A stretch of DNA of 63,952 nt, the filler included, from Folioceros fuciformis (Eukaryota): assembly GCA_049999805.1 (NCBI GenBank). It is 9 parts of 9 records of this genome, joined end to end, with 100 filler letters (N's around TTAATTAATTAA, not from the genome) between each part and the next. Parts side by side here need not be neighbours in the genome. Positions count along the whole stretch, not along the records: positions 17,999 to 24,964 come from JBNGIO010001102.1; 8 more parts are not named here. One strand, given 5' to 3'. The position numbers and the translations under genes are program-made. Below, one piece after another: positions 4,393-39,714 of the stretch (within the stretch, counting starts at the first letter, position 1; every line of letters starts with the position of its first letter). The notes beneath the pieces were generated by a model. It had not been told where the DNA came from. It ran no database searches and saw only the letters and a program-made list of their open reading frames with translations.

Positions 4393-4433
4393 CAAGCCAA
4401 GCCAAGCCAAGCCAAGCCAAGCCAAGCCAAGCC
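4393..4433. repeat. (CCAAG)n microsatellite
   Basis: Direct reading caagccaagccaagcc... Confidence 0.95.
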
Positions 4434-4966: not shown

Positions 4967-5066
4967 NNNNNNNNNNNNNNNNNNNNNNNNNNNNNNNNNN
5001 NNNNNNNNNNTTAATTAATTAANNNNNNNNNNNNNNNNNNNNNNNNNNNNNNNNNNNNNNNNNNNN
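4967..5066. other. Artificial contig spacer (N44-TTAATTAATTAA-N44); same spacer at 6886-6985, 17899-17998, 24965-25064, 26566-26665, 33411-33510, 39615-39714, 62532-62631
   Basis: Identical 100-nt N blocks with a central linker giving stops in all six frames; genes are cut at these points. Confidence 0.97.
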
Positions 5067-7939
5067 CCTCCCCCCGTCTCCGTCTCCGTCCAGCACGATC
5101 TCGTCCGGTCCGGTCCTGCCCTAGCCTAGCATAGCCTGTCCCGCACTGCCCTGTCCTGTCTCGAGCTCTAAGCCCGTGGGACGGCAATCCCTACAGCTGA
5201 CCAGACGAGGAGGGCACGAGGTGAGTGATGCGTCCTTGGGTCCACAAAGCCAAAAACAAGAACACACGATTCCACAAGATCTACCAGCTTGGGAGAGGCA
5301 GCCTCGGTGCATTGCTCGCTGCGGTGGCAGCCCCTGCAGGCAGCAGACAGGCCCTGATGCGCAAGCAAGCAAGCTCGCAAGCTAGCACCCAGTCAGTGGT
5401 GTGCTGACCTGTGCTGCTCGAGTCGCAGCCCTAAATTTGGTTCCCTAGCAGCGGAAGAGAAGACGCCGGAGGAGGGGCAAGGCGGAGGGAGGTGGGAATG
5501 GAGGCAGCCACTACGGATACGAGACACACAGCCCTACAGATCATGTCGTGAGGGAGGAGGGAGGGAAGGCAAGCAGGCAGAGGCCCAGCTCGCAATTTCG
5601 CACCCCGGTAGACGGTGCCGTGCCGTGCCGGTGCCGGTGCCGCTACCGGAGCCGGCCAAGCCCGGCATACGTGGACTTGGACTGCCTCGGTCCCCGCCGG
5701 CTGTGGTGTAGTGACTTATATCGCTCTGGCGGAGAAGGGAGCTGCCTCTGCAACGACCATGGCCGGCACGGAATCATGGACAAACAAGGGACGCGGTTTC
5801 TGGCAAGGGCCCAAACAACCCGTAGCCCCGAGGCCTAGAATGCGGCAAGGCCAGCAGCCCAGGTCCTGACCCACGAACGACTCAGGTCCCAAAACCCAAG
5901 ACTCAGTACCCCAGGAGGACCCAGTAGCCCAGGAGGACCCACTACCCATGGCCCAGCCGACTCTGCCTCCAGCTTCAGCTCCATCTCCAGCCTCCGGTCC
6001 ACAGTTCCGCCCACCCTCCTTACTTTATTTTTCTCTCATAAGACCTGGTCAAAAGCTCTGGAGTCTCCCACGTACAGGACCCTATCTACGAACTTGCGTG
6101 TTCTCGAGTGCTGCGAGCACAGGACAGTCGAGTCTGGCTACTCCATGTTCACGAGCCAGCCAGCCAGCCAACACACCCAAGCCCTGGTGCCTGCATGGCC
6201 TGCTGGGAAAGTGCTTCCTCAAACTCCCAACGCATCACATTGGATGGCCAGTTCAGGCTGATTCTCGTCTATGCATGGCGCCTTCAAAATACCTTTCTTT
6301 CATAGACACCTCATCTTGTGGATCACCTCGTAGGTGTAGTACACCTTCTTCAAATAATATTTTTTCAGACGAAAATATTTACTCCGTCTCAATTATACGT
6401 AGACTTTATTCCACAATCTTTCATTAAATACAATGGATAATATTGACATAAAATTTGGTACATCTTAATTTGTTAGTCATTTAAATTACATATGAACAAC
6501 CTAGACTACTTCTTCTAAAGTTATGCACAATATTTAGTCTAAAGTATAACCTTTTTTCTTCAAAACAAGCTTTTAGAAGGATGAAACACAACGAGAGTAG
6601 ATGAGTAACAATCGTAGTCTCTCTCTTCCTTTATGTCTATATAAGTGGACAAAAGTAGAACTGTCTTACCTCTTACTTTTCCATGGTGTGCAGTTTCTGT
6701 TACCCATAAGTTGCTTCAATGATAGCTGAGAAAAATGCAGCCAACATCTTGTTGGGATCGGAAGATAGTTAGCCATTATCTTTATAATTATATTATTTTT
6801 CTTAGTGCTTCTAGTATGCTAAGATTTTGGTATGCAAAGATTTTTGTTAAGAGGTCGGAACTAACTTCGTGTTAGTGTTCTATTGNNNNNNNNNNNNNNN
6901 NNNNNNNNNNNNNNNNNNNNNNNNNNNNNTTAATTAATTAANNNNNNNNNNNNNNNNNNNNNNNNNNNNNNNNNNNNNNNNNNNNCTGGAGAGATGCGGT
7001 AGGTGTGTGCCGTGCGGTTCCTTGCGGCTTGTGGTAGGGAGACGGTGAATTGGAGGAGTCCGGCTGGGTGAAACAGTGCGGGCTGAGCGGCGTTTGGGCC
7101 GCATACCAGAGTTCATATTTTAGGTGACTGGCAGCAGCGGATGCCATGGACGGGTAGGTTGTTGGGAGGATCCAATTCTTGTGTTTCCGTGCTTGCAAAG
7201 TCCAGACTTCGTAGCTGAAATCGGTCGGGAGCTGCGGGCTTAGGCTAGACTCAGTTTCCTCATTCCACCCTGCTCTAGTTTGTTGAAGGGGTGAAGAAAT
7301 TGGACTGTTGAACAAAATGGGAGTCCAATCTGGATTTGTTTTCTTGTTTTGCGATCGTGAAAGGCTTGGTGGAGTCTCACACATTAGCGATTTCAGCTAC
7401 GGACTGTGTTCCGGCTGATCACGTCGGGACTTGATCCGGTCTGTGTTTGCACTACGCGAGGCTTGAAATAGAAAGCATGACCTAGAGTCCCCCTGATGGG
7501 AAATTGCATGTGTCAATTCTCAAAGCTAGGTCAGTCGGCAAGGTTCCCTCACATTGTCGTGTATGTGATCTGTTTTGCAGGGAAGTGGTCGTTCGGGAAC
7601 TGTGGCAGAGAAACTTGGTATTGGATGTGGCGTAAGTTTGAGCTTGGGGGGTTTCGTCTCGGCAGGAGAGTGAAGACTGACTGTACACCGAGAGAATAAT
7701 ATTATTGCAGAAAATGGCAGGGTGCAGTCATGGGTTTAAACCAAATTGACTCTGGCTGAGCAAACCGAATGTACCTGAGAAAGCTGGCTGTGGGTGCGCA
7801 AACTGGTTATGGCTGAGGAAGTTAGGGGAGGCAAATTTTATCCTTGGATGAGATGAGAGACTTCCCAAGGGAGTAATTCATTAAAGTACCATATACAGAC
7901 GATTAGTAGCATATTGTACAAGGTACAGAGGTCGAAGAC

Positions 7940-9625
7940 ATGATACTCCTTGCTATGGGGACAGGAAGGTCTTTCAAGGAGTCATTGAAAGCGTTGGAGG
8001 CTGATATTCAGCATGCGAACACTCTGTAAGTGATTCTACCAGACGCGATCTGAACCCTTGCCTCATGCTAACTCTCAGTACCCTGTGCTAATCACTTTGG
8101 GACTGATGCTAACGAACACGCTGCTAGAAAAGTAGTTGGGGACACGCTTGAGTAACACTTTGTCCGTGGGCGATGTTAAGTAAAACTTTGAAGGGTTCAT
8201 GTGAAGTGACAGTTAGATCGTCCTTAAGTAGCACTTAGAGGGGTGATGCTAACCAACGCTCAGATAATTGGTACAAGCCAACTCGTAGGTGATGCTAGCT
8301 AGTGCTTGGTGAGTGATGTTGACCCTAGTTAGTGATGGTGATCCTTTGGGGGTGGTTTTAATCCTTGGTTAGTTATGCTAACACTTCGGTGAGGTGCTTG
8401 TTTTTTTGCTTCGATTACAACTGTTTTCTTCTGTGTCTGATGTTATCCACTTTGACGTGTTGTTTTCAGGGCATCAGAATTTCCCAGAGAATATGATGGT
8501 GCTTGCTTGCAGATGAGGCTGTCGTACAGTCCGGCAGCACCTTTTCTCCTTTTCCTTGTTCGTTGGACGGATTGCAGTCTTGCTGGTGCCTTGGGGTTAT
8601 TAAGGATACTTATTTACAAGGTGTGTTTAATGTTTTTTCTGGACAGTCCCAGTCCACCGTAATCTGCAATAGGCGGTTTGTGTGGAGCTGTAGGCACTCC
8701 AAGTAGCATTGTGGTTGATGTGAAACAAGGCGTGTTGCACGTTTCTACCACAATTACATACTCTTGGGCTTGCATGTCTATTGGCTTATGTGCATGTGAT
8801 TTTCCAATGTTCTCGGCTATCCGCTGCTGAGTGAAGTCTGGAGTTTTGTGTTGGGTTCTCTCCGATGGCGTGCAGGTATACATGGATGGGACAACAACTA
8901 TGTCAACTCATGAGAGGAAGGCTAGCCTGCGCGAGTTTTATGGTGAAGTTTTCTCTGTTATCAGGTGGCAGACAGTGCTTTGTTGACTAGTAACCCGAGA
9001 AGTAAAGATGGTAAACTTTTTCTTGTGATGCAGCGTATATCTATCCTTCTCTGCAGCAGCTGCCGGGTGGAGTCACCGAATTGGAAGATATAAAACAAAA
9101 GGCCCAATGCATGGAAAGATACAAGAAGAAAGCTGACGAAGAGAGGGGGCGCATGTCGGCGCTTGATCTTGAGAGGGAGCAGGAATGTGGCATCTGCATG
9201 GAGACGAACAGCAAAATTGTTCTTCCGGTCTGCAATCATGCCATGTGCATCAAGTGCTACCGTGAATGGTAAGCAGCAGGGGTGTGTACGTTTTCTCTAC
9301 CTCCAACCGAACGCGAACGCTTGAAGATGTGAGGGTGCTTTCGGGAAGGGTGAAGCCCTAGATGATTTTCCGAGTGGCAGCTTGGCATAATAATGCTCAC
9401 CTTTTTCTTTGCAGGCACGCACGGTCACAGTCCTGTCCCTTCTGTAGAGACAGCCTGAAGCGGGTGAACTCTACAGATCTTTGGATTTTCACCGACTCGG
9501 GCGATGTGCTGGACATGATGACGCTTGCGAGGGAGAATCTACAACGACTGTTCATGTACATCGACAAGTTGCCTCTCTTGGTGTCCGAGAGTGTCTATGC
9601 CGTCTACGATTCACACCTCAAGTAA
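7940..9625 (+). CDS. AIRP2: RING-HC E3 ubiquitin ligase, AIRP2-like; exons 7940-8025, 8470-8620, 8876-8942, 9034-9268, 9415-9625 (start may be ATG 7955)
   Basis: Spliced product GRSFKESLKALEADIQHANTLASEFPREYDGACLQMRLSYSPAA...ERKASLREFY...ECGICMETNSKIVLPVCNHAMCIKCYREWHARSQSCPFCR matches the AIRP2 family; all introns are GT-AG and keep frame. Confidence 0.93.
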
Positions 9626-9926
9626 GTTGGACCACTGCGCCTGGATTCACACCTGTCATTCCCCACTGGTTAGGTTGACGAATTGTAAATACATATGTAC
9701 TTCCGGGCCTCAACTCTAGTTTGCGCCGATGCGGTCCTTGCACGTCCCTGCAACAGAAGCGACAAGAGCTTGCAAGGGGCTTCGGGCATCAAGAGTTCCT
9801 CGGCAGTAGGATTGCCAAAAACTGTACAGCATTAAACAAAGGGGCTTGTGGTCGCGCCTGTCTCCACAATGACGTCATGTGCACGCAGGGGAATCTGTGT
9901 CCGCTGCCGGGCACGTAAGAATCAAC

Positions 9927-9990
9927 ATAAATTGATTCGTCCAAGCCATAAATTGATTCGTCCAAGCCATAAATTGATTCGTCCAGGCCA
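9927..9990. repeat. 21-bp tandem repeat x3 (ataaattgattcgtccaagcc)
   Basis: Direct reading. Confidence 0.9.
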
Positions 9991-11868
9991 TCGATTCTGT
10001 GTACGTATGTAAACATGGCAAATCCATGGGGCTCAGGCTCCTGCAATTTCAAATCCATGGCAAACCAACTCCGCTCACGAACGCAGACACACACAACTAC
10101 GTGTCTGCAGACACACGCACCTACCTGTCTCGGCCCATGGAAGACGAAGAAGCGGGACTTGGTTCCAGGCAGGCGCAAGTGAATATTTTATTGAAGATAT
10201 ACGTGTATTCGTATCAGTATAATAGTTTGCGCGGTAGACCAAGGACGGTAGTTCGCTCGTGATGTGCATTGCCAGCCCGTTTTTCGCGGCGATAACCCAC
10301 GGCTTGCCCGACACGGCCTTCCGTGATGTCCTTGGTGACTCGCGACATCCTCCATCTCGGTGCAACCAACTCGATTATCACCGTGCCAGCTCTCGCATCT
10401 CTAAATTTGGCGCTCGTTCACCTGTGCTTGAAGGACAAGACGATGCCTTGAGGAGCACTCAAGCTCAATTCAGCTCGGCGTTGGCAAACGTGCAGAGCCA
10501 GAAGGTGAGGTGGCAGCTTCGCTTTTGACTTTCAAAGATGGAAGGGAACAGGATTTAGGACTGGCTTTAGATTCGACATCGATTTGGAAATGCAAAGGCA
10601 TAAGGCCCGGAACAAGGCTTGAAGCGGGAGAAGAATTTCGAATTTGTTCGCAAACCCTAAACCAAAGGGGACGCGGGGAGTTCGCTCAGGAGGAGCTGCT
10701 GTAATGTCATGTCCTGAATGCCCAAAACAATCCCAAAACGTTCTGCAACGGAAAGGTGTGCAGCTGAGATTCTACAGGCTTGCCATGCAGCACTGCCGAA
10801 ATGAACCCAGTGTTACTCCCTGACAGGTTGATCCAATTCAGAGTCTTCCCGCATGCGTGTTGATCCGATCCAGAGTCTAGCCACAAGGCTGTTGATCCAA
10901 TCCAGAGTCTTCCCACGAGGATGTCCATCTGATCAACAGTCTTCCCCACTATCCAACCTGGAACCCTATCGCTGACTAACTTCTAGTTTATGGCCAAAGC
11001 ATTCGCGGAGAAAATGAAGACAGTGAAGCTGCTTTTGGTTCCTTCAACAGTATGCTACTAAATAACACACTTGTCTTGTCCACTGGTGGTGAGCGATCAG
11101 CCTTGGTGCACCAAGAAGATTGAACACCCTCACCTTTGCAGCTTGGAATTGCCACTATAACACTCGCAGGGCGCAGGAGCAGGAGTGGAACGCTGGGAAT
11201 CTCAAAAGCCTTACCGCTCTGTGGGGAATGGTGCAACTCAAACGCCTTTACCCTTCTGGCGAGTGAAACGCTGGACGACTCAATTGCCATACTTACCCGT
11301 CTGACGAGTGGAATACTGGGCAGCTCGATTTCCCTACGGCAGGCCTCTGCTCTGACGACTGGAACAATGGGAACTGGAGGGGCAATGTTCCGTGCAAACT
11401 GTGATCCGGGTAGGTACTCTTTACTACCCGTCCTCTTTTCCCTTTTGTCGTCCAGCAATCTGGGAGGCGGCTTTGTCGAAGCCTCAAGGGGAATGACGAT
11501 TTTAGCCACATACGTACCACTCCACCACCTTGAAGTTCTTGCGCATGTTTGGCAACTCGGATGTCGGCGGTAACATCTCTTCTTCAATCCTGGTGATTGT
11601 TGATAGAAGACGAACACTAGTGCGAGCGAAATTGTGAAAGCCCGACTGCGAATGCGCATCTTGAGCTTACTTCGAGAAAGCGACACCTCCTCCGTGAGCT
11701 TTCCAGCGTCAGACGCTCCGTTGTCGCTATGTTTCTCTGTAAACAGTCGTCACCAGCACAGAAGGAAGGAGGAGGTCTGGTTGGTGTTGTTTTCAACTAC
11801 GATGTTCCCAACGGTATGGCTCTGCTAGCGCCATGGATATTGGGTCAGCGTATGGATTTTGGCAGTGA

Positions 11869-14800
11869 ATGGCTGGCTGGCGAGTTGGGCTCCTGTCACA
11901 GAGGACGACGTTGCCGAGAGGGCCTCTGGCTGGGCTCCGCGGGCTCCAGTGTTTTGTGGGCGATACACCGTGGTGCGATACCAGGCAAGAGAAGGAGAGC
12001 TCCGGTGGCCCTGAAAAGATGTGCAAGCAGACGCAGATGGGTCATCGAGCTCCGACATCCAAGTGGAGAAGCACGGATGATGGTGACCCTCGCAGGTCCA
12101 GGAGTGCAGGATACGAATTGGTGGTGACTTATGAGACCGTGTGCCAGTTGTGTCAGGAGGGGCAGCTCGCTGCGGCTGTGGAGGCTCTGGGAGTGTTGGT
12201 GCTGACTGGATGTCGTGTTTCACAGCCTGCCTTTCGTGCTGTGCTGAAAAGTTGTGTGGTGCAAAGGGATTTGGTTCTGGGTCGCCGTGCCCACGCCCTC
12301 ACTGTTGAACAGGGTTATGAGGTGGACACGTTCTTGTGCAACCAGGTCATGCGGATGTATGCTTCTCATGCCAGGTTACAGGAGGCCATGGATGCATTTA
12401 CCTTGGTGGCCGAACCAGACGCCTTCATGTGGACTTCCATAATCTCTGCACATGTAAGCCATGGGGAAGCTAAGCAGGCCGTAGAATTGTATCACCGAAT
12501 GCGCAGGTCAAGCGTGAAGCCAGATGGGTATGTGTTTGTGGCTGCCCTTCAGGCTTGTGCCAGGGGAGCGGACTTGAAGGCTGGGCAGCAAGTGCATGCA
12601 GATGTTTTGGCCAGCGGCGTTGAGCCTCATTTGATTGTTTGTAATTCCTTGGTGGACATGTATGCCAAATGTGGCCGCTTGGAAGATGCTCGAAGAGTGT
12701 TCGATGGACTTGTTGAGAAAGATGTGGTGACGTGGAATGCCTTGCTAGCAGGGTATTCCCAGCAGGGGATGGGTCATGAAGCCTTACGTCTTTACAGTGC
12801 TATGCAAGAAGCAGGCATTGCTGTGCCTACTTCTGTGACCTTTATCTGCCTCCTACAGGCGTGTGGAAGTGTGGCAACCCCGCAGGCATTGGAGACTGGG
12901 AAGCAGCTTCATGGTCGAATCAAAGAACGAGGTGTTCTGACAGATGTGTTCGTAGCCAATAGCTTGATAGACATGTATGCAAAGTGCGGCAGCTTGGAAG
13001 ACGCTCGAAGAGTGTTTGATGGGATTGGCAGGAAAGACGTGGTGACGTGGAATGCCATGATTTCAGGATATTCCCAGCGGGGAATGGGCCAGGAAGCTCT
13101 TTGTACTTACGAGGCTATGCAAGAAGAGGGCAAGTCTGCACCTGATTCTGTAACGTTTGCCTGCGCCCTACAAGCTTGTGCAAGTTTGGGTACCCAAGCT
13201 TTGGACATGGGGATGGACCTTCATGCTGAAATTAGGGAACGCGGGCTTCAGGCTGATGTGTTTGTAGCCAGTAGTTTAGTAAACATGTATGCCAAGTGTG
13301 GCAGCTTGCAGGATGCTCAGAGCGTTTTTGACTTGTTTGGTCAAAAGAACACTGTGGCACAAAATGCCATTATAGCGGGGTATGTCCAGCAGGGGATGGG
13401 TCAGGAGGCTCTTCTGCTGCACGGTGCAATGCAAGAAGAAGGTATTGCGTTACCCGATGTTTCTACATTTGTGTCACTCCTGCAGGCATGTGCAACTGTG
13501 GGCACCCCAGCTCTGGAAAGGGGCATAAGCCTTCATACACAGATTGGAGAACGTGGACTCCAAATTGATGTTGTTTTAGGTTGCAGCCTGGTGAACATGT
13601 ACGCAAAGTGTGGCAGTTTGGAGGATGCTGAAAGAGTGTTTGATAGACTCGGTGAAAAGAACGTGGTCACGTGGAATGCTATAATTGCTGGATATGCAAA
13701 AAATGGCTTGTTGGAAGATGCTCAGAGAATGTTCGACAGGATTCCTAAGAGGGACGTGGTGACGTGGAATGCTATGATCGCAGGCTACTCGCAGCAAGGC
13801 CTGGGCCTTGAAGCTCTTCGTCTTTACAGAGCCATGCGAGAAGAAGGTGTTGTTGACCCCGATTCTGTGACATTTGTTAGCGCCCTCCAGGCATGTGCAG
13901 GTGTGGGCACCGCCGCTCGGGAGATGGGAAAGCAGCTTCACTCACAGATTGGGGACCGAGGGTTTGTGGCCGATGTTATTGTAGCCAACAGTTTGGTGAA
14001 CATGTACGCAAAATGTGGCAGCTTGGAAGAGGCTCGAGCCGTGTTTGACGGGCTTCTCCAAAAGGATGTTGTGACTTGGACAGCTCTAATAGCCAGATAC
14101 TCACAGCAGGGCATGAGTCAGGAAGCCATTCATCTCTACAGTGCTATGCAAAAAGAAGGCATTGTTGCACTCAATCCTGTGACATTTGCTTGCCTCTTGC
14201 AGGCATGCGCAAATGTGGCAGCTTTGTGTGTCGGAATGCAACTTCATGCTGAGATCAATGAACTAGGCCTTCAAGAGGATGTGCTTATAGGCGGCAGTTT
14301 GATAAATATGTATGGGAAGTGTGGGAGCATGACAAGTGCACGGCAGGTGTTCGAGGCATTACCTGAACGAGACGAAGTTGCTTGGAACGCACTGATATCA
14401 GGCTATGCCTGTCAAGGAGACAGTGACGTTGTCTTTGACTTGGTCCACAGAATGAGGGAGGATGGCGTACAGCCAGTCAGCATCACGTTCCTCAGTGTGC
14501 TCACAGCATGCAGTCATGCCGGTCTAGTGAACCAGGGGCGGGAGTATTTTGCAACCATGTGCACACAGTACGACATCACTCCCGAGGTGGAGCACTACAC
14601 ATGCTTGGTGGATCTCCTAGGCCGGGCCGGCCGTGTGGACGAGTCACTAGCGCTGGTAAGGACAATGCCAGTGCACCCCAGTGCTGCACTTTGGCACAGT
14701 CTATTGGGTGCCTGCCGAAAGTGGGGCAACGTGAAGGTGGGACTGTATGCTTTCCACGAAGCAGTGAAGCTAGACGAGAGAGACACAGCGGCGTATGTGT

Positions 14801-15072
14801 TGATGTCAAACATATACACCAGCGCCAAGATGTGGGAGCAGGCACAGGAGGTGCACGCAAGGAGGAAGGCAATTGGAGCATGGAAACAGCCAGGCCAGAG
14901 CTGGTGGACAGACAAGGACGGTGTGGTTCATAGATTTCTGGTTGGGGATAAGAAGCATCCCGAAGCTCACGTCATATCTGAAAGGCTAAAAGACCTCGTG
15001 CTCAAAATCAAGGAACAAGGGTATGTGCTTCACCTGGACTCTTCGCATCTGCAATCCGTCTGCCTTGAGTAA
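11869..15072 (+). CDS. PLS-class pentatricopeptide repeat protein (organellar RNA-editing factor) with E domains and a truncated WW-type DYW start; 1067 aa, intronless
   Basis: Repeated L/S/P motifs (NSLVDMYAKCG...DVVTWNA), E region, C-terminal WKQPGQSWWTD..HRFLVGDKKHPE; ends before any HxE/CxxC deaminase motif. Confidence 0.95.
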   Translation: MAGWRVGLLSQRTTLPRGPLAGLRGLQCFVGDTPWCDTRQEKESSGGPEKMCKQTQMGHRAPTSKWRSTDDGDPRRSRSAGYELVVTYETVCQLCQEGQLAAAVEALGVLVLTGCRVSQPAFRAVLKSCVVQRDLVLGRRAHALTVEQGYEVDTFLCNQVMRMYASHARLQEAMDAFTLVAEPDAFMWTSIISAHVSHGEAKQAVELYHRMRRSSVKPDGYVFVAALQACARGADLKAGQQVHADVLASGVEPHLIVCNSLVDMYAKCGRLEDARRVFDGLVEKDVVTWNALLAGYSQQGMGHEALRLYSAMQEAGIAVPTSVTFICLLQACGSVATPQALETGKQLHGRIKERGVLTDVFVANSLIDMYAKCGSLEDARRVFDGIGRKDVVTWNAMISGYSQRGMGQEALCTYEAMQEEGKSAPDSVTFACALQACASLGTQALDMGMDLHAEIRERGLQADVFVASSLVNMYAKCGSLQDAQSVFDLFGQKNTVAQNAIIAGYVQQGMGQEALLLHGAMQEEGIALPDVSTFVSLLQACATVGTPALERGISLHTQIGERGLQIDVVLGCSLVNMYAKCGSLEDAERVFDRLGEKNVVTWNAIIAGYAKNGLLEDAQRMFDRIPKRDVVTWNAMIAGYSQQGLGLEALRLYRAMREEGVVDPDSVTFVSALQACAGVGTAAREMGKQLHSQIGDRGFVADVIVANSLVNMYAKCGSLEEARAVFDGLLQKDVVTWTALIARYSQQGMSQEAIHLYSAMQKEGIVALNPVTFACLLQACANVAALCVGMQLHAEINELGLQEDVLIGGSLINMYGKCGSMTSARQVFEALPERDEVAWNALISGYACQGDSDVVFDLVHRMREDGVQPVSITFLSVLTACSHAGLVNQGREYFATMCTQYDITPEVEHYTCLVDLLGRAGRVDESLALVRTMPVHPSAALWHSLLGACRKWGNVKVGLYAFHEAVKLDERDTAAYVLMSNIYTSAKMWEQAQEVHARRKAIGAWKQPGQSWWTDKDGVVHRFLVGDKKHPEAHVISERLKDLVLKIKEQGYVLHLDSSHLQSVCLE

Positions 15073-15694
15073 GACGCCAAGTCGCCACACTTACCTTCGA
15101 GCCTAAAAGCAAATTCTACCGTCTGGTTGCGAAGACCGTCCAAATTTGCGATGCTCTGTTTTGTGCTATCCGGGGAAGATGAGATACAAATATTGTAAGT
15201 GTACTGCTAAGACTTGCCGCCACAACCCAATTCTCGAAAAGTGACAACAAGCCATTAAGGCCGACAGTATCCACAGCCTGGCCTACAAGTAGCTCGCGGG
15301 TGGAGGTGTTGTCAGGTCTGCTACAGATCCACCAGTACCTTCTCTTCCACATTGTGAACATGAAAGAGAAGTAATGTTAGAGCCCGGGCGTGCGGGAATC
15401 TCACTGCACGCGATCCGGATAAGCCTATGCAATGTAGCATCGTGGAGCATCCACACCGAGAATAGAAGTCTCGAAACAGCAAGTGCAAAATGGCGTTTAC
15501 ATCTCCAGCCTGTTGCAGGATGGGATGTTCGTCAATAATTCGGATGTGATTCAATTATGGAGAATGGAGTCAGCCGATGCATCACAACCCGTAAGACAGT
15601 GAAGGCCAAATCCTGTAGCCCAGCCAGCCTTCGAGAGCTGACCCCAGTGTTGGCTCGCCTCGAGCTCAAGGCCTTCAAATCTCAGCCCACCATC

Positions 15695-17268: not shown

Positions 17269-17998
17269 GGAGACACCAGGCAGACTGTGTTTCGACATCT
17301 CGTCGACTGAGTGTTTTTCAGTCCCTCATCTTGTCATCGAATGTCCTTCCCTTCCTCTTCCGATATAGCAAACTAAAGGAAACCAAAGGGAGATCTCACG
17401 CCAACGGCTCCGTGCGAGTGCTGCTGTTGAAGCCGCTGATGCCCTGGTGGTGCTTCATGAAGGGCTTGGTCGCGGGCTGTGGTACAAAATGTCGAAGCTG
17501 GTCAGACTCTCTATCGTCTTGTCTGGAGCAAAATATTTAATGCTTTTGTTGCAGCCGAAGGGTGATAAGGATCTTAGTCTCTGCTTCGTTGTTTAGACGT
17601 ACTCTCGGCTTTTCTTGTTTGGCTTGTCGAGGGCGTTCGGGTTTTGTTGAGCGGATTCGGGTGAGCTTGCGTGGCCTCACGACTATCCCAAGAAGGATAC
17701 GCTCGATATTTATTTTTGATGTAGCTAGAATAATGTAAAAATTACAGGACGAATGATAAATTTCAAACTTGAGCGATGGTTGAAGCTTGTGTGCAAAAGG
17801 CATAAAAACAACGTTGTACATTCGATTTCCACAATTAAAATTGTAAACCCTAATCACAAGACGAAGGAACATTGTTGGTATTGACATTTCTCTATTTANN
17901 NNNNNNNNNNNNNNNNNNNNNNNNNNNNNNNNNNNNNNNNNNTTAATTAATTAANNNNNNNNNNNNNNNNNNNNNNNNNNNNNNNNNNNNNNNNNNNN

Positions 17999-19082
17999 AG
18001 TCTCTGGATAGTCTAAGAGGTGGTAGATCCTTGTGGTGGCAGGGCCAGGAGCTCATTGGTGGCAAGTTGTGCTAGGAGTCTAAATAAGTGGCTGGTGACA
18101 GCCGGCTAGGCTATTAAAATAATATTTCTCAAGTTAGAGAGAGGTGAAGTCACAGAGAGAGAGAGAGGCTCCTATAAGATCGGGTGAGCCTGTAGGAGGA
18201 GGGAGTCATTCACTTTGGGAGTCAGTCTATCTCTTTGTGAGCTCTTGGAGGTCCTCTCTTCATGAGCTCTTGTGGTCTGTCCCTGCTTGGTTTAGGACTT
18301 GCAGTGTGTTGCCGGCTGTGCAACGTCTGGTAGGATCGCAAGCCGTGTGTTGCCGGCTGTACAGTGTCTGGTAGGATTGCAGGCAGCGTGTTGCCGGCTG
18401 TACAGTGTCTGGTAGGATCGCGGGCAGCGTGTTGCCGGTTGTATAGTGTCTGGTAGGATCACAAGGTTTAATGACCAGGGTGTAGGGGCTTGCCCCTAGC
18501 TCTTGATTGTAAAGGGTGTGTCTTTCTCTCGACCTGTCCACTCTTGTTCCTTGCTTGGTCAAGTGTTGTAGGCCGGCCATGTCTCATGGTGTCTGGTAAG
18601 GTTGTGGGGAGGAGATATCCAAGAGGGGAATGTGTTCCCTTCGTCCTTTTGTTTGGGGTTAGTCTAGTGACTCTTGCCGGGTAGGAGGAGTTAGTAGGGA
18701 AGTGTAGAAGGTAGTGGTGTCGTTGCTGGTTGCTGGTAGTTGCTGGTGTTGGTGCTGGAGTGAGAGAGTGAGTGAGGTGTGTGAGGGAAGTCGCAGAACT
18801 GAAAGGTTAGAGTCGTTGTAGTGGCTGGAGTGAGTTTGTGGGCACCGAGAGAGGTGCAGCTGACCGCCAGACAGCGAGGCCTGTCCTACGCCTGATCAGA
18901 GCTGGAGGGGAGCCCTCGAATCCGTCATCGAGTCGATCAAGTCCGACCCTCCATCCACAACAGCAAGGAACCCCATCGCTCCTTCGTGGGAACGAAACCC
19001 AATATCTCAACGACAGTGGGATAAGAATGGCCACTAAAGGTGGAACCCGTTGGCAATCGGTGCCCGGGGTTTTGCCTCCACA
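17999..19082. mobile_element. Probable LTR of another retroelement inserted into the Copia RT region; contains a 41-bp x4 tandem repeat (18301-18460)
   Basis: Copia RT homology ([14 protein letters not shown]...LQKQYAK) stops abruptly at 19083, where this sequence ends in ...CCACA (TGTGG on the minus strand). Confidence 0.55.
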
Positions 19083-22000
19083 CCTTAGCATATTGTTTTT
19101 GCAATAGCTAGATTCCTTGAGGTGTAGACACAACCTCAATTCCTAAGAAGTATCTGAGTTCACCAAGATCCTTCACCTTGAACTCTTTTTGCAAAATTCG
19201 CCTTGACATCTGCAATACCATCTGCATCATCTCCTGTGATGATCAGGTCGTCAACATAAACGACAAGACACACATGTCCTACCTTGGTCTGTTTTATAAA
19301 CAGACTGTGATTTGCGTCTCCAATCGCAAACCCTCGCTCCTTCAAATAGCTTGTGATACGAGCATTCCATGCTCTAGGTGCCTGTTTGAGTCCATACAAT
19401 GCCTTCTTCAATTTGCATACGTACGTTGGAAACGTAGGATAAACATAGCCTTCAGGTTGTTCCACGTACACTTCCTCCTGCAACTCACCATTCAAGAAAG
19501 CATTCTTGACATCCATTTGCCATAACTTCCATCCTTTAGCTGCTGCTAATGCTATGACTGTCCTTACAGTTGTCATCTTGGCTACTGGACTAAAGGTTTC
19601 CTCGTAATCAAGACCATACTATTGTGCATATCTATTTACAACCAACTTGGCCTTGTAACGCTCCAGCGTTCCATATGACTTGAACTTCAACTTGTACACC
19701 CGCTTAGAACCAATAGGAACCTTGCCATCAGGCAGTTGAACCAAATCCCACGTTTCGTTCTCAACTAATGCTGAGTATTCTTCATCCATGGCTTGACACC
19801 ACTTATCATCTGTCACTGCCTCAACAAACTTGGTTGGCTCCTTACAAGCTGTAACCCTTGTCATATACGCATAATGTTGCGCATTGTAGCTTGTATAGGT
19901 GTACCTGTCAATGGGTTTCCTAATCCTCTCATATCTCCTTGGTCTTGGTTCAATTTGAACCTGCCTTGCATATCGTTGCTCCTTAGCACCTAGCGTTTCC
20001 ATAGACGGAATGCCAACCTCAGTGTTAATGCTCTCAGTACTTGAGGATTCATATCCCTCATTTCTAGTTTTGCTGCTTTTTACTCTCCCCCTCACTAACA
20101 TGTCCGGGTCAGTGGTCTTGGGTTTACCATTCCGCAGTCTTCCAGACCATGGATTCACCGTTGGTGATCCACCATTGGTCACATCCTCACTCTTTGTTGG
20201 AGTACTCTTAATAGTACTCTCCCCTGTGGGTGCGTCATAGGGTAGTGCAACTAAGTTGCTATACCAGGAGGCTAACTCATCAAATACTACATCCTTGCTT
20301 ATTAGGATCTCATGTGTGGATGGCACATAACACTTATATGCCTTCTTATTTCGTGCATACCCCAGAAAAACACTCTTCATTGCTTTAGGATCCAGCTTCC
20401 TACGCTTCTCATCAGGTATATGCACATATGCAATTCACCCAAACACTTTCAAGTGCCTTATATCCGGCTTATAGCCATACAGTCTCTCAATTGGTGTAGC
20501 ATCATGAATTCCTGCCATAGGAGTTCGATTCACTACATACAATGCTGTCATCACTGCTTCTGCCCAATAATCATTGGGTAAGCACTTCTCATTCAACATT
20601 GCCCTTGCTGTTTCCATGACTAACCTGTTCTTCCTCTTTGCAACACCATTCCGCTGTAGTGTGTATCTGCAAATCAACTGTCTTCGTATACCATGATCTG
20701 CAAGATACCTGTCAAACTCCTTTGAGACATATTCTCCCCCTCCATCTAGTCTTAGACAAGAGAGGGAGCAGCTGAATTCATTTTCAGCATGCTTTTTAAA
20801 GTCCTTGAAAGACTCGAACACTTCATCCTTATGCTTCAGTATGTACAGCCACATGTACCTACTGAAATCATCAATGAAGGAGACATAGTAGTGGGCTCCT
20901 CCAAACGATGCATTCTGTGAAGGACCCCATACATCAGAGTGTATCAATTACAAAGGTCTCAAGCTTTTCTGCACGTGTCGCACAAATGGAAACCTTGACT
21001 GTTTTCCAAATTCACATGCAAAACACACATAACCAAGATCAGCATACTTGAACTTGGGCAATCCTTCCACCACGCTTTTCTGCTGCATAGATTTTAGCTT
21101 CTCTATGTTCACATGCCCAATCCTCTTCTGCCATATTTCAACATCACTTATGGCACCTGCATCATTTATAAACATTGCTGCATTTAGCTTTGGAATGGAT
21201 GCATTCATAGTGAACATCCGTCCATTGCTACTACCTTTAACAATCAGTTTGCACACTCTATCATATTCTTTAATAAAGCATCCATCTTTATTGAATCGAA
21301 CCTGTAGATTTTGTTCAATTGTCTGTCCAACAGACAACAAGTTCTTCGTAATGGTTGGAACATGCAACACATCTTGCAGACTCTTCTGCTGACCATTCGG
21401 CATCTTAAGAGGAATAATTCCTTTGTGCTTTATGTCATGTTGTGTGTCATCTCCTCTACACATGACCATGGGGACCTGCATCCATCTTATTAAACCACTC
21501 GCCATGCAGAGTCATATCGTTTGATGCTCCTGAATCAATGGACCATCTCTCATCATTTTGCCCATCCTGTTCAGAGAGATGTTGCATGGCAAACAACCTA
21601 TCCTGGTCATTTCCAGCAAAACTAGAGGAGGCATAGTTCCCATGCTGCCTTCCTTTTCCTCTCATATCTGCTTGCTGCTTATAGCAGTCCTTAGCAATAT
21701 GACCAACCTTTCCACAGTAGTAACACTCCTTGTCTCTATTGGAATGGTCATGAGATTGAAAAGAACCATCTCTTCCTCTTGCGGCTCTACCTGCGCCTCT
21801 AAACCTTCCAGATCCTCTCTGGCCTTGCGCATTTCCTCCACACCAATTGTCTTGTTGATTCTGCGTGTTCCGAGCATCACCCTGTCCTCAGAATGAACCA
21901 TGACCTCTATGGCCTCTCCCACGCTGGTTAGAAAACAAAACAGTGTCTCTCCCTTGAGACATACCTGAACCTGTGTTCAGACCGAGCTTAACTTCCTTAT

Positions 22001-23387
22001 GCAGCAACAAAGCAACCAATTCATCCCAACTTGGGGACTCAGCTCTCACAGAGATTGATGTGTCAAAGGACTTGTATTCCTTGCCAACTCCGTTCAGAGT
22101 AACTGCAACCATGTCATCTTCTGTCACACTTGCATCGATTGTAGCAAGCTGATCAGCTATGGTCTTCACCTCTGTTGTATACACGAGTATGGATCTGCTA
22201 CCTCGTGACAAGATATTGAACTGCTGCTTCAACTGGATTTTCCTAGCATGTGTGACATTCCCATAGTTCCTCATGAGTATGTCCCATGCATCCTTCGGAG
22301 ACTCACATCTCGTGATCTGTATGACCATAGCATCTGAAATACTTAAGGAGAGCTAGTGTAACACTTTACATGCTCTCTCAGTCCATGCTTGTGAGCAGTC
22401 TTTTGCTCCTATGACGGAGTACGATCCATCTCCGGTTCACTCTCATCACCTGTGCAGAGGTCCCAATAGCCTCTACCTACCAAGAAGTTCTTCATCCTGA
22501 ACTTCCATAAAGCAAAATTCTTGTTATCCAACTACTCTCCCACAACCTGAGAGATATTGTCTGATCCCTGCACGTTAGCCATGATTCAGGCTCCTTTACG
22601 CACCGACACTTATTCGCACCTCAAGTCAGTTAACTGCCTTCTCTTGCTTGCTGTGCCACCAAGTCCCTTGTGGACAAATTGTCAAAACACTTTCATGCGT
22701 CTTCCAACAGATGTTTTTGACAATCTTGAGTGCAGCTCCCTACACTGCTGTAGAGCTCCAGCACTCCACAAGCCTCAATCAGATCTCAAAAATTCCTGAA
22801 TGTGCAGCTGACTCTTCGCTAAGCAAAAACAGCCTTTGCTCAAGCTTTCAAAAAACAAAAAAAATAGAACACTATTTGCCAAGTTCAGGCCTTCCTCCTC
22901 GCAAATCCTAGGCCTACTGTGGCTTCCACGGCCTGGTTGCCTCCACTAGTTGTTGCTCCTCCTGAGTCTCTCTCCCTCTCACGCCTCTTGCGCGCTCTTG
23001 CGCTTGTGGCGCCTGTTGCGGCTTCCTACGCCGCCTACGCCGCTGCGCCTCCTACGCCTCTCAATGGCTTGCATTGCCAGCCACCTTCATGCTCGCAGCC
23101 ATAGCCTCAAACCCCCACCATAGCCACCATGGCCGCCGGCGCTCTCTCTGGCTCTGATACTGTGTTCAAATAGCACCACTAACGTAGATGGACTCCACAG
23201 TACATTCCTTAAGGTGCACAAGATGCTACATATATAGCCTTCAAGCGGGGCAACCCTCGATAAGGTAAGCCTTAGTCTTGAGGGTGCACTGTCCTGGTAT
23301 ATCCTGATAACACTTAGGTAGGAGATAACTACGAGTTCAATATGGGATAATCTACACTATCCTAAATGTTGTATGCTCTTAATAACA
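19083..23387 (-). mobile_element. Ty1/Copia LTR retrotransposon, decayed: 5' LTR 23163-23387, PBS ~23149-23162, gag start 22582, zinc knuckle, protease, integrase, partial RT
   Basis: IDSGAS protease; IHSDVWGP/RLDGGGEY integrase; [11 protein letters not shown] and [13 protein letters not shown] bounded TGTT...AACA; tRNA-Met-type PBS variant (cagtatcagagcca on minus); frameshifts and stops. Confidence 0.95.
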
Positions 23388-24917
23388 ATTCAGTTAGAGC
23401 TTGATTTCTAACAGATGGTTCAGCTCTCAAGAGCTCTCCTTGGAACATAAGGACAGCGTCAGGAGCCATCGAGCCAGTCGCCGGAGCAACTGTCAAGCCT
23501 GTGGATATCACACTCAAGCCAGGCACTCCAGATGCCATGACGTCGAGTCTTCCATGCTTAGTGACAACAACCACAAACTATGACGTGCTATTAGGGCAAG
23601 AATTTCTGTTTCCACCAGGTTTAAGTGTGGACAACTGGACAGAGCAAGCGTATTATCATCCAGATTGGAAGCAAGGAGAGAGAAGTGTGGCACACTTACC
23701 CCTTCGATTGCATGACATGTCAAAGGTTGACACAGCTACACTTGTAGAGCGACAAGCCTGTACAGCAGTCCTGGTCAGTGAGGGAACACCCCCTTGGCCA
23801 GCAACCATTTGCAGGATGAGGACTACCTAGAGTTAGAGCAAGAGGAGGAGCATTGTGAGAGCTACTCCAGCAACACCACAGCCACATGCAGATTGACATA
23901 TATGATCAAGGCCGCTGACCATCCCACATAGGTTCAGGGTGTGCTGCAGGATGCTTACGAGCATGTCCAGCAAGTGCAAGTTCTGTTGCAGCGAGGACTC
24001 AAGGATCCCATGCAAGAGCATGTTGTCAAGTCTCAGGTGATTGATTGGCCTATCCCAGCCGCCGGCCTCTTTCTTGTGGAGCTGTTTGGCGGCATTTGTA
24101 CTGGCCTAGAGGATTTGCTTAAGGCAGGCCTCCCCATTAGGCATAATGTGTACTGTGACAGCAGCGGGGAAGCACGGCAGATAGCTGCTCATTGCTTACG
24201 GGAGCTCCGCAGCAGGTTCCCCACATAGCTATCGGAGGCAGCCTTAGCTGCCACATTCTCAGCACTGCCTCAAGACGTTAGGTACATCCAACAAGGCCAC
24301 ATCCAGGCCCTGGGATACATAGACGTGCTAATAGCTGGCTGGGAATGCCAAGGGTTCTCCCAAGCAGGCGCAGGAGTGAGGTTGGAGGACCATCGTACTG
24401 GGTTGTTCCAAGACCTGCACCAGATCTTGGCATGGGTGCAATAGGAAAATCCACATTGTGGCTATCTCCTCGAGAACACCCCAGCGCAACTTGACAAGAG
24501 GGACTCCGTGCGATAGGACATGGCACTTGTGGAGCACCATCTTGGTGCTCCCTTTCTTTTGGATGCTGTCTAGGTGGGTAGTTATGCGCACCGTCTGCGC
24601 AACTACTGGACCAACCTCATCCCTAATTCAGTCTTGGCACTTGTGCTTCGCAACACGAAGCGGGATCCCACCTTGCACCTGCAGGATGTGTTGGATGCAG
24701 ATCATGAACCTAGGCCTGTGGTTGCTAGTGAGCGACCACCCTGGCATCCAACCAACACGCCTAGTCAGCCTCGCAAAACATTGCCTACCCTGGTGAGCTT
24801 TCTTGGCTCCTTTGCTATTGCGGCAACGGAGCTGGATTGTTATACAACACCACCACAAAGCAATGGGAAGAGCCCCGCATTTAGGAGCGTGAGCAGATGA
24901 TGGGCTTTCCAGCACAT
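23388..24917 (+). mobile_element. Decayed retrotransposon pol segment: C-terminal half of a retropepsin protease followed by a C5-cytosine DNA methyltransferase domain
   Basis: IRTASGAIEPVAG...CLVTTTTNYDVLLGQEFL (protease); DNMT motifs in order VELFGGI, PQDV, IDVLIAGWECQGFS, RTGLF, YLLEN, AHRLRNYWTNL, EREQMMGFP when read through TAG stops. Confidence 0.85.
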
Positions 24918-25064
24918 TGTTGAGTTATCGAGCTCTATATGAGCTAAACTCATGTGGTGTTAGTNNNNNNNNNNNNNNNNNNNNNNNNNNNNNNNNNNNN
25001 NNNNNNNNTTAATTAATTAANNNNNNNNNNNNNNNNNNNNNNNNNNNNNNNNNNNNNNNNNNNN

Positions 25065-25708: not shown

Positions 25709-26749
25709 ATCTGGACTATCCTGGACAATGAGAATGAAATCTCTTTAACATTTCAACATGCTCCAAAATTAACAATGTATTGAACTCTAAAGGATCATGC
25801 ATTTGCGAACTAAATCTTGACGGCCCTTTGTTTGCATTTGTCGACTAATATTGATCATAACCCAGATTCAATGAGCAAGTTTGATAGCATGATTTTATAA
25901 AGATGTCATTGAAAAGGAAAGAAGGACCAAGACGTGTACTACTTTAGTGGAGGTGTGTTAGGTCATAGCAACCCAACAAAACCTGTATATAAACACACTC
26001 CTTAAAAGAAAGGGTTTCATATTTCTTTTCCCAGAGAAAGAAGGCTCTTGAGTTTAGGTGTATGGAAATTAGAACCAAAGATTAGTCTAAAGGTGAAGTA
26101 CTTTATTGGTTATGTGGAACCTCAACTACACTAAAAGGTGTTTTTTTTTTTTTTTGAAATATAAAGAAAGAATTCAAATGCTACAATATCTAGTACTATG
26201 TACAATGGAAACATCTATGCCGCATACCCATCATCCATCACACGCTTCCAAGCGTCATGGATTATTATTTTTCAAGCAAATTTGAATTTTTTTAGATTTG
26301 CTGAAATCATGGGTTACTAATTCCTCATGCTCACTACTACTGTTGTGAGACATATCAAAATATAAAGTGCCCAAGTTGTGGATGAACACTTTGCATAGAA
26401 GAGGCCCCTTCTCTAGAGCCCTCTATACATGACTCATGTACATTTAAACCCATGGCATATAGCTAGCCACATAAACAAAATAACAGCTAGAATAATTGCC
26501 AACACAATAATCTTCATTTTGAAATTCTGCATCCACATTTTTTGACGTAGCTGTCTTCCTTGTCGNNNNNNNNNNNNNNNNNNNNNNNNNNNNNNNNNNN
26601 NNNNNNNNNTTAATTAATTAANNNNNNNNNNNNNNNNNNNNNNNNNNNNNNNNNNNNNNNNNNNNAATGGAGAGGCTAGGCTTTGAGGTGGAGAGAACGC
26701 AAATGGCTTGGAGCAATTTATGCGACAAAGCTAGGAGCCAAGCTGGAGA

Positions 26750-33410: not shown

Positions 33411-33929
33411 NNNNNNNNNNNNNNNNNNNNNNNNNNNNNNNNNNNNNNNNNNNNTTAATTAATTAANNNNNNNNNNNNNNNNNNNNNNNNNNNNNNNNNN
33501 NNNNNNNNNNTCCTCCATTAGGTTTTTTTTTCAACCGTATGTTTTACACAAATATTTCATGGCATTTTTCACATACATGCAGATTTTAGGGCTCCACGTC
33601 ACATTACGAGCTGCCATATGACATCATCTATCATTGTCACTTTAGTGAACCAATAAAGAATGCAAAAGAATCTTCTTTGGGTTTGTACTTTCTTTCTTCT
33701 CCATTCATAATGTTTCTATATGCACATCCCTTTAGACCGCCATTCAGACCGCCACATTCTTTCGGTTTGTACTTTCTTTTTTCTTCATTTATAATGTTTC
33801 TACATGCACATGCTTCATCTTGTGTCTTTTCTGCCCCTTCAGACCACCATTCTTCCACACTTCATCAGATCGCCACTCCCCCACACTTCATTAGAGTGCC
33901 ATTCTTCCACACTTCACCCTACAGCTCAA

Positions 33930-37802: not shown

Positions 37803-39254
37803 ATGAGCTTCGTGCGGGCTGGCGCAGCGATGAAGGGTTATCGCCTCAAGCACGCTCTCCGCTCATGGCAGGCCGTGCAGCAGAATCTCGCTGCGCTGGG
37901 AGCCAGGGAGGAGCTTGCGGTGGCGGGTAGCGGATCGCGGCGGGTGTCTACTTTTGCCGCTCCGAACGGCATTGCCGCGGGTTTTCGCGGTTTGTCTGCC
38001 ACCAGATCTGCGTACGACTTGGTGGCGGAGAAGTACGTGCTCTGGGGAAGGGTCGCGGTCGGGCCTGCTGGATCCAGGCTCTTCTCGGCAGACGCTGCGC
38101 TGCACAAGGATGAGGAGGCGGAGAAGAAGCCGCAGGACCTAGGCTCCAAGCTTGAGGCGGGCAAGGTGGCAGGGGTGACGTCCTACTGGGGCATAACTCC
38201 GCGAACTTACCACCGGGAGGATGGCACGGTTTGGCCGTGGAAGGATTTTCAGGTGCGCCGTCGTGAGCTTGCCAGGGTTTCGAGGTCTGGATGTAATTTT
38301 TGAGAGAGTTGGGAGAGTTTCATGTGGTTGTTGTTTGTTTTTGCGTTTGTGTGTTGCGCAGCCTGGCGATGCGTACGTTCCTGATACTACGGTGGACCTC
38401 GGCAAGCATCACAAGCCTGAGAACTGGTCTGACAGGATTGCCTATTGGACTGTGAAGTCGTTGAGGGTGCCGACGGACATTTTCTTTAGGGTAAGCTTGT
38501 TCTCGTGCAAGTTGTCACCTCTGATAATGACGTTGGGGTGAGGTTTTGAGATGTGATCCCGACTCTAGCACCTTGCAATTGGTTGCCTGCCTTGGCTTGG
38601 GTTGCCCGCTTGACTTGCCCATCGTCGAATATGTGGTCTCCTTCTCCGGGGAGTAGAAGGCATTTGCAGCAAGATCGGAGCATGTCTCTTCACACCAGTA
38701 TGGGTGCAAAAATGTCTTCCAAGAGGATGCACCACGCTGATGTGTAGGGATAAGGTGAGTTGCACTCATTCTTCTGGTCTGGGCTGCTGCTACTGCCTAC
38801 TTCTCCTTGGGATGGAGTCGGGTTCCAGTTGGAGGAGCCCCACCAGCCGCTATAAGTTATTGGTTCTTTGCAAATGTCCGTTGATTGTTGGGATGCGACT
38901 CGCCTATCTTCTCTCCTTCCTGCGTACATATGGTTGAGGTTCCTCACAGTTTGAGTTACTTTATTGCTAACCGCCGGCCTTGTGGATCATCCACAGAAGC
39001 GGTATGGATGTCGAGCCATGATGTTGGAAACTGTTGCTGCTGTGCCCGGGATGGTTGCTGGAATGCTACTCCATTTCAAGTCTTTGAGACGCTTCGAGAG
39101 GAGTGGTGGCTGGATAAAGGCTCTTCTGGATGAAGCTGAAAACGAGCGCATGCATCTTATGACTTTCATGGAGGTTTCACAGCCCAAGTGGTACGAAAGA
39201 GCTCTGGTTCTGGCAGTTCAAGGAGTCTTCTTCAACGCCTACTTTCTCTTCTAC

Positions 39255-39296
<42 letters not shown>

Positions 39297-39614
39297 GAAG
39301 AGGAGGCCATATATTCCTACACGCAGTTTCTGAAAGAGATCGACAATGGGCACATTGAGAACGTCCCAGCTCCCGCAATTGCCATAGATTACTGGAAATT
39401 GCCGAAGGATGCATCTCTGCGGGATGTGGTGGTGGTCGTTCGTGCAGACGAAGCCCATCATCGGGATGTGAACCACTTTGCGTCAGTGAGTACTTCCACT
39501 TCATTTGCCTTGTAGTTGCGTGTATTGAAGCATAGTATTGTAACATTTTGAAGGTTTGTTCTCTTGGTCATTACAGGATGTTCAGAAGGAGGGCAAGGAT
39601 CTGAAAGACGTACC
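37803..39614 (+). CDS. AOX: Mitochondrial alternative oxidase; exons 37803-38252, 38362-38490, 38997-39485, 39577->contig end
   Basis: [44 protein letters not shown] di-iron motifs; exon 2 is 129 nt and exon 3 is 489 nt, the canonical plant AOX sizes. Confidence 0.96.
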
Positions 39615-39714
39615 NNNNNNNNNNNNNNNNNNNNNNNNNNNNNNNNNNNNNNNNNNNNTTAATTAATTAANNNNNNNNNNNNNNNNNNNNNNNNNNNNNN
39701 NNNNNNNNNNNNNN

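Follow-up and report, generated by a model that had tools for sequence, protein, structure and literature searches.

A decayed fragment of a probable Ty3/Gypsy-type retrotransposon with a DNMT3-like cytosine methyltransferase domain, most likely from a land-plant genome

Retrotransposons that carry their own C5 cytosine methyltransferase (C5-MTase) are known from Klebsormidium and from Symbiodiniaceae. According to the accessible text of de Mendoza et al. 2018 (PMC5890265), KnitGypsy-Dnmt3 of the charophyte alga Klebsormidium nitens has A-coding-B-A-B repeats (Fig. 4c legend) and a Ka/Ks below 0.2, and its DNMT3 acquisition is ascribed to the Klebsormidium lineage. The same text reports SymbioDIRS-Dnmt3 and SymbioLINE-Dnmt of Symbiodiniaceae as retrotransposon-borne C5-MTases, which its authors regard as independent acquisitions (PMC5890265). 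SymbioDIRS, as described there, also has A...B-A-B repeats, but the Symbiodiniaceae elements are built on a tyrosine-recombinase (DIRS) or LINE backbone and not on a Gypsy protease (PR), reverse transcriptase (RT) and integrase (INT). A 2025 article in Molecular Biology and Evolution (MBE; PMC12344493) and a preprint (10.64898/2026.05.21.726589) speak, in their accessible parts, of elements in "streptophytes", citing the 2018 work. Within the searchable literature, which mostly leaves subscription journals outside, we found no embryophyte report of a transposon-borne DNMT3, only dinoflagellates and Klebsormidium ("streptophytes"), which agrees with the initial annotation of the DNA studied here, whose author knew of no well-characterised embryophyte family. 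That DNA is a 63,952-base stretch from the assembly of Folioceros fuciformis (GCA_049999805.1; hereafter the window), and its subject is a fragment at 23414-24917 on the plus strand, the remaining 1.5 kb or so of an element of roughly 10 kb. We consider it very probable that this fragment is the fossil of a Ty3/Gypsy-type long terminal repeat (LTR) retrotransposon that carried a DNMT3-like domain between PR and RT, of the KnitGypsy-Dnmt3 kind, most likely in a land plant.

The methyltransferase domain can be recognized from its motifs, from profile searches and from its predicted fold. P0001, a 344-residue read-through translation of 23932-24964 with X at the stops, contains in frame 1 the motifs VELFGGI, PQDV, IDVLIAGWECQGFS, RTGLF, YLLEN and AHRLRNYWTNL, and motif IX, EREQMMGFP, is found in the +2 frame relative to P0001. 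Motifs I-IX, named as is standard for the C5-MTase family, are in canonical order, and Cys139 (the catalytic Cys in IDVLIAGWECQGFS, codon 24346-24348), Glu181 and Arg221/223 are retained; motif X is missing, the element being cut at 24917. On the feature level, motifs I-VIII occupy 24025-24830 (plus strand, frame 1, with four in-frame TAG codons) and the motif IX region occupies 24831-24908 (plus strand, frame 3), the latter located by tblastn, in which P0032 (residues 1180-1205) and P0029 (residues 925-949) align to 24831/24834-24908. The canonical order proposed in the initial annotation is upheld by this rereading. In Pfam, PF00145 (DNA_methylase) scores 28.3 bits (E 1.5e-6) over residues 114-190 of P0001, the cut-off being 22.

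Among solved structures, DNMT3A is the top relative of the domain by sequence (E 1.2e-4). A profile search with the family alignment scored DNMT3A at 87.7 bits and DNMT3B/C at about 78, followed by tobacco DRM (53 bits), DRM2 (41), M.HhaI (39) and DNMT2 (28), with no DNMT1 or CMT chains at E<=0.01 in that search against solved structures. An AlphaFold2 model of P0001, built on a 22-row family alignment, has a mean predicted local distance difference test (pLDDT) score of 80.4 and a predicted template modelling (pTM) score of 0.78, and its top Foldseek matches are all catalytic domains of DNMT3B, DNMT3A and DNMT3C, with DNMT3B the best (E 1.4e-11). We read the domain as a predicted DNMT3-like C5-MTase of unrearranged motif order, its likeness to DNMT3 being one of profile and modelled fold and not of phylogeny with host genes. 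Since the domain aligns to P0005, a protein of the liverwort Calypogeia fissa, in one ungapped block of 293 residues, it is intronless, as had been claimed.

Upstream of the domain, at 23414-23713 (plus strand, frame 2), is the C-terminal half of a retropepsin without its catalytic D-T/S-G half. Searches by tblastn with P0005 residues 56-153 and P0027 residues 755-852 both align to 23420-23713 at 47-48% identity, and the translated piece 23405-23830 aligns to P0005 residues 56-153 at 47% identity (46/98; BLASTP E 3e-30). That piece has no relevant Pfam match of its own, PF13975 included; of the two Pfam families proposed for this region, DNA_methylase was thus recovered and gag-asp_proteas was not. 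The retropepsin half is genuine because the aligned residues of P0005 overlap that protein's own PF13975 gag-asp_proteas match (residues 22-118). Homology begins only at P0005 residue 56 and P0027 residue 755, which means that neither gag nor the catalytic half of the protease is left; the catalytic part falls beyond the point at which a Copia element is inserted. Between PR and DNMT is a poorly conserved linker (23714-24024, plus strand) with at least one frame change, from frame 2 to frame 1: the frame-2 open reading frame (ORF) stops at 23830 and the frame-1 ORF begins at 23932. PR and DNMT share one ORF in P0005 and P0027; they are 89 residues apart in P0005 and about 104 codons apart in the fragment. 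The two pieces are adjacent and collinear with P0005 and P0027, and the earlier statement that the methyltransferase follows a retropepsin C-terminus is borne out by the P0005 alignment and by the spacing in relatives.

The assignment to a retrotransposon comes from the relatives of the fragment. A word-indexed protein search returned 23 relatives of similar length and 28 longer ones, and an exhaustive search of 50%-identity representatives returned 1299 matches at E<=1e-3, a number that falls to 521 at E<=1e-10 and to 145 at E<=1e-30. Proteins of 1000-3400 residues with the DNMT match in mid-protein make up the majority. Identities to the fragment are 35-50%, and the named relatives come from Calypogeia fissa, Closterium sp. 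NIES-53/54, Chlamydomonas eustigma and Haematococcus lacustris; Klebsormidium does not occur among the named protein matches. Two Pfam architectures are seen. The first, gag(zinc knuckle)-PR-DNMT-RVT_1-RNaseH, is seen across P0050, P0038, P0027, P0035 and P0005, with PR-DNMT-RVT_1-RNaseH in the Closterium protein P0050; the second, RVT_1-RNaseH-DNMT-integrase-PHD, is that of P0029, where the protein search places the DNMT at residues 661-916. By the established gene order of LTR retrotransposons, the combination of RVT_1 and RT_RNaseH, with RT coming after PR and no integrase in between, is the Ty3/Gypsy pattern.

A scan of metagenome contigs gave the same picture at the level of loci. There were 120 relatives among 599 pattern matches; 80 loci were kept, and 25 of the longer ones among those closest to the fragment were mapped with three reference polyproteins. 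RT and RNase H are downstream of DNMT on the same strand in 24 of these 25 loci, the exception ending about 500 bases past the DNMT, and RT is followed by integrase and PHD in 19. The coding part is about 7.1 kb, as at 7176-14271 of locus L006. By self-comparison of 12 loci, split repeats of the form A...coding...B-A-B are present in three (L006, L036 and L061), partial in two and absent from seven; in L006, A is 4894-5182 and again 14516-14804, and B is 14336-14516 and again 14805-14985. The initial annotation had put the domain in a pol polyprotein and not in a host gene, and the Ty3/Gypsy polyproteins among its relatives, together with the downstream RT of the mapped loci, favor that placement. 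The fragment itself is linked to RT, INT and LTRs by homology to these relatives only.

A decayed host DNMT3-type gene, or a processed pseudogene, lying beside an unrelated protease remnant would also have host-type DNMT3A/B as its top relatives of solved structure, and would likewise be found without RT or INT. We consider this explanation very improbable. The adjacency and spacing of PR and DNMT are kept in P0005, P0027, P0035, P0038 and P0050 and in the 25 mapped loci, the domain falls inside a clade of polyprotein-borne domains with which it has a Glu-Cys motif IV in common, and the sequence is multi-copy. Host DNMT3A/B of animals and DRM of plants have the catalytic fold and motifs of the domain in common with it, but the domain in the fragment lacks introns, lacks PWWP/ADD or the accessory domains of plant DNMT3, and is embedded in a polyprotein; the motif order of DRM, according to the accessible text of PMC5890265, is rearranged, unlike that of the domain described here.

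KnitGypsy-Dnmt3 resembles the family of the fragment in having an intronless, unrearranged DNMT3-like domain inside a Gypsy-type Pol, in being multi-copy and in having its DNMT under purifying selection between copies, and it resembles some of the closest full-length relatives of the fragment in their DIRS-like A-coding-B-A-B repeats. It differs in that its host is a charophyte alga, while the host here is apparently an embryophyte and the copy a dead fragment. The Calypogeia protein P0005 (46% identity) and the Closterium proteins P0018, P0019, P0038 and P0050 (35-38%) have the PR-to-DNMT order and spacing of the fragment; these entries are annotated as "unnamed protein product" and not as transposons, P0005 itself ends after motif VIII, and we found no paper describing the Calypogeia or Closterium DNMT entries. 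Gypsy polyproteins of chlorophytes (P0029, Chlamydomonas eustigma P0041 and Haematococcus P0044) carry a homologous DNMT at 35-42% identity and a C-terminal PHD finger, but they differ in the order RT-RH-DNMT-INT as against PR-DNMT-RT (Pfam order for P0029 only; RH, RNase H), and they fall outside the 31-row streptophyte group of the tree described next.

In a FastTree phylogeny of 155 DNMT domains, the fragment groups with Calypogeia P0005 and with P0004, P0006, P0007 and P0027 at an SH-like support of 99. This group sits within a group of 31 rows that includes Closterium (support 98), the named chlorophytes being outside it, and among named species P0005 is the sister sequence of the fragment. 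Streptophyte sequences thus cluster in the tree, with chlorophytes further out. The fragment also has an unusual motif IV, in which Glu-Cys replaces the usual Pro-Cys (24337-24363). The motif IV sequence AGWECQGFS is common to the fragment and to Calypogeia fissa and Closterium proteins, and since the Glu-Cys of the fragment is found in the liverwort P0005 as well, it is not a product of decay. Both the Glu-Cys and the Pro-Cys variants are present in long polyproteins.

Several observations weigh against the reading of the fragment as a Gypsy-DNMT3 fossil of a land plant, or against the idea that its family encoded a working enzyme. As regards the DNMT element, RT, integrase, LTRs and split repeats are all absent from the window, and the contig on which the fragment sits (17999-24964) is transposon sequence only, with zero host genes by ORF list and Pfam. 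Homology to KnitGypsy-Dnmt3 is argued from shared architecture and repeat layout. The tree is midpoint-rooted and has no host DNMT3 outgroup, and inside the five-member group that the fragment joins, P0005 is 61-69% identical to the other four members, while the fragment is 44-50% identical to all five, which makes this copy a distinct, partly decayed branch. Motif IV is Glu-Cys in 94 of the 155 family domains, Pro-Cys in 36 and something else in 3, with 22 unmatched by the pattern; catalytic activity of a family that is mostly Glu-Cys is not assured, judging from these residues, and KnitGypsy-Dnmt3 produced no methylation in yeast, a result that its authors judged inconclusive in the accessible text (PMC5890265). 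Each of the 34 loci examined from the closest clade has its DNMT interrupted, with no ORF in that region longer than 411 amino acids. Finally, a simple Nei-Gojobori script with tblastn-guided codons is the source of the ratios of nonsynonymous to synonymous change (dN/dS) for pairs of closest-clade copies, and these are to be read at the level of the family. The medians, which themselves speak for the reading, are 0.36 for DNMT (664 pairs), 0.40 for RT (433 pairs), 0.44 for INT (169 pairs) and 0.50 for gag-PR (457 pairs). Decay after insertion raises dN/dS, so the DNMT was at least as constrained as the RT while the family spread. Only four more distant loci (L039, L043, L044 and L047, at 35-40% identity) have intact ORFs of 2074, 2027, 2106 and 1175 codons, respectively, across the DNMT, and from these reading frames they are possibly active elements, perhaps of algal hosts.

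The copy in the window is dead and without function, with four in-frame stops in the DNMT domain, all TAG (24226, 24442, 24514 and 24571), at least two frameshifts and cuts at both ends. This part of the initial annotation, a dead copy with no visible RT or integrase, is sustained, and two of its details are corrected. It had allowed for a single frameshift, where tblastn of relatives places the fragment in three frames (frame 2 for PR, frame 1 for motifs I-VIII, frame 3 for motif IX) and thus requires at least two frame changes; and it had started the feature at 23388, where the first 26 bases are Copia LTR on the other strand, the fragment starting at 23414 and homology at 23420. P0005 has Gln opposite two of the four TAG codons, and other relatives have it opposite a third, which fits, but does not prove, an origin of the stops as CAG-to-TAG changes. 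Over 23414-24917 the observed/expected ratio of CpG is 0.40, with TpG at 1.35 and CpA at 1.57, and this CpG depletion fits a long decay through deamination of methylated cytosines.

Both cuts are also visible in sequencing data. Contigs of four public runs (X1-X4) were aligned to 22400-24964 for depth and variants, and the runs with the sequence bear a single species label. In run X1, summed depth over 23174-23431 is 4980-13531 and loose contig ends lie at 23413, while summed word depth rises from 275 to 15183 in the bin 24894-24964 and pieces of other copies stop matching at 24917; summed depth in these counts does not equal copy number. The right-hand cut marks the start of an unrelated, very high-copy repeat (24918-24964), of which 47 bases are present before the contig ends at 24964, and it is because of this repeat and this contig end that RT and integrase are missing. 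Run X1 has 571 contig pieces on 22400-24964 at >=80% identity, flanking repeats included (133/179/178/81 by identity class). Inside the DNMT part, at single sites such as 24279, up to 11 distinct X1 contigs carry a variant letter, and distinct contig variants are numerous in runs X1-X3. Up to 11 variant contigs at single DNMT sites imply a multi-copy family in the organism concerned, so the sequence is multi-copy and not single-copy, as the initial annotation had expected of a transposon family. The window itself has no second copy: tblastn of whole polyproteins finds only the DNMT locus, and blastn of the flanks and the fragment against the whole window finds no other.

Run X3, from a sample common to X1 and X2, is of a different character. 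Most of its pieces are less than 95% alike to the window, and over 22400-24964 it shows 84 C>T and 97 G>A changes, with any other change at 24 or fewer; it looks like a converted library, bisulfite- or enzyme-treated.

Which organism the fragment belongs to is a separate question. The window consists of nine contigs joined by eight N44-TTAATTAATTAA-N44 linkers, each with a stop in all six frames (4967-5066, 6886-6985, 17899-17998, 24965-25064, 26566-26665, 33411-33510, 39615-39714 and 62532-62631), and adjacency across these points is meaningless. The contig with the fragment gives way to Ns and linker from 24965, and as it has no host gene and the window is made of separate contigs, its assignment to the plant rather than to an associated alga is indirect. 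Should the contig instead derive from some other organism sampled along with the plant (an epiphytic alga, whether streptophyte or green, or another bryophyte, for instance), the fragment would still be a Gypsy-DNMT3 fossil, though not one of the land plant whose genes are on the other contigs. The artificial linkers, the transposon-only content of the contig and the presence of the algae Closterium, Chlamydomonas eustigma and Haematococcus among the named relatives would all be expected in that case, which we nevertheless regard as improbable: in runs of a single species label, the abutting Copia LTR reaches a summed depth of 13531, one of the highest values anywhere in the 2.6 kb covered, as fits the dominant genome; among named relatives, the nearest is a protein of a liverwort, encoded on a 66.6-Mb contig; and with 43-49% GC per 2-kb window the contig is inside the range of its neighbors. 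A land-plant host is most likely, given the genes on the other contigs, the liverwort sister sequence, the high-depth Copia LTR that abuts the fragment and the similar base composition.

If the fragment is what remains of such an element, its history might be reconstructed as follows. Intact relatives can be read as one polyprotein of the order gag-PR-DNMT-RT-RNaseH-INT-PHD, from which the protease would free the DNMT domain or leave it fused to RT. With S-adenosylmethionine, the DNMT would then methylate cytosines in new complementary DNA (cDNA) or in DNA around the integration site, as in the hypothesis of de Mendoza et al., and this methylation may somehow have aided the persistence of the element. 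The initial annotation had likewise proposed that such an enzyme could act on the element's own cDNA or on the host methylome. In the copy studied here, a Copia element has inserted into the protease at 23413/23414, and a second repeat cuts the element at 24917/24918.

Could the domain have been domesticated instead and still be expressed, either by read-through or as a non-coding regulatory RNA? In run X4, which may be RNA, one contig has about 80% identity to the domain over two short stretches. We find domestication scarcely credible in a copy that is cut at both ends and has four stops and two or more frameshifts; the X4 contig is a diverged relative and not the window locus, and the RNA status of the run is itself a guess. 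The X4 match is to a 9251-base contig that aligns to 24268-24365 and 24560-24614 on the minus strand, and it may represent a full-length but diverged member of the family in the same species.

Retrotransposons with their own cytosine methyltransferase upset the view of methylation as a purely host-side defence, and with relatives found in chlorophytes, a zygnematophyte, a liverwort and the Folioceros plant, the family is far wider than published. The kind of element is already known (Gypsy-DNMT3), and what is new is a fossil member in an apparent embryophyte and a widened taxonomic range, for which the copy described here serves as no more than a fossil marker. If the Gypsy-DNMT3 reading is right, the association of DNMT with retrotransposons is much older and wider than reported, land plants, whose methylation system is the best studied, hosted such elements, and there is a way to study transposon-borne DNMT3 amid CG, CHG and CHH pathways. 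A larger proposal, which we put forward tentatively and with more doubt than confidence, is that Gypsy-DNMT3, rather than being peculiar to the Klebsormidium lineage, is an old lineage across green plants that entered or was inherited by land plants and was active after embryophytes arose, and that its DNMT, mostly of the Glu-Cys form, was under selection of RT strength, which would imply a working enzyme. In that case, a transposon enzyme, possibly altered in behavior, could have methylated its own or host DNA in early land plants.

The Copia element that interrupts the protease takes up the left part of the contig. Its 5' LTR (23166-23413, minus strand, about 250 bp) is a high-copy Ty1/Copia LTR nested in the DNMT element, recognizable from the depth over 23174-23431, from the loose contig ends at 23413 and from its start, TGTTAG on the minus strand at 23413. 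A sequence like a primer binding site (PBS), TATCAGAGC, lies just inside the LTR at about 23150-23162; this site and the LTR end at 23166 were read from the sequence by eye. The internal region (19160-22352, minus strand) consists of several broken ORFs with gag, zinc knuckle, protease barrel, pre-integrase, integrase and RVT_2 matches (PF14223, PF00098, PF22936, PF13976, PF00665 and PF07727). The element as a whole (17999-23413, minus strand) is interrupted by the contig end at 17999, which leaves the 3' LTR and the target-site duplication out of view. A relationship between the Copia LTR on the left and the repeat on the right of the fragment is unsupported, the local score being 24 against 17.1 +/- 3.0 (maximum 30) for shuffles. 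Some metagenome loci have more than one element: L003 has two tandem DNMT elements on one contig (520-5967 and 7179-10913), and L058 has an unrelated Gypsy remnant (674-2686, minus strand) on the opposite strand near its DNMT element, which suggests transposon-rich nests resembling the one in the window.

Host genes are found on other contigs of the window. An intronless pentatricopeptide repeat (PPR) ORF of 1067 codons with E and E+ motifs (11869-15072, plus strand) ends soon after these motifs and lacks a full DYW domain. Of the 120 best matches to it, those with a species name all come from land plants, at 31-43% identity, and given these values the protein database seems to be without a close relative of the Folioceros plant. 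A second intronless PPR ORF, of 1069 codons, is on another contig (56538-59747, minus strand) and resembles the first by eye, and Pfam identifies a dirigent gene, likewise outside the contig of the fragment. In the flanks of the 80 metagenome loci, a search for PPR, dirigent, alternative oxidase and F-box genes gave no match. An alternative oxidase exon is at 38955-39515 (plus strand; PF01786, 234.6 bits), and its frame runs through eleven Lys codons (poly-A), probably because an intron is being read through or because low-complexity sequence has been inserted in frame.

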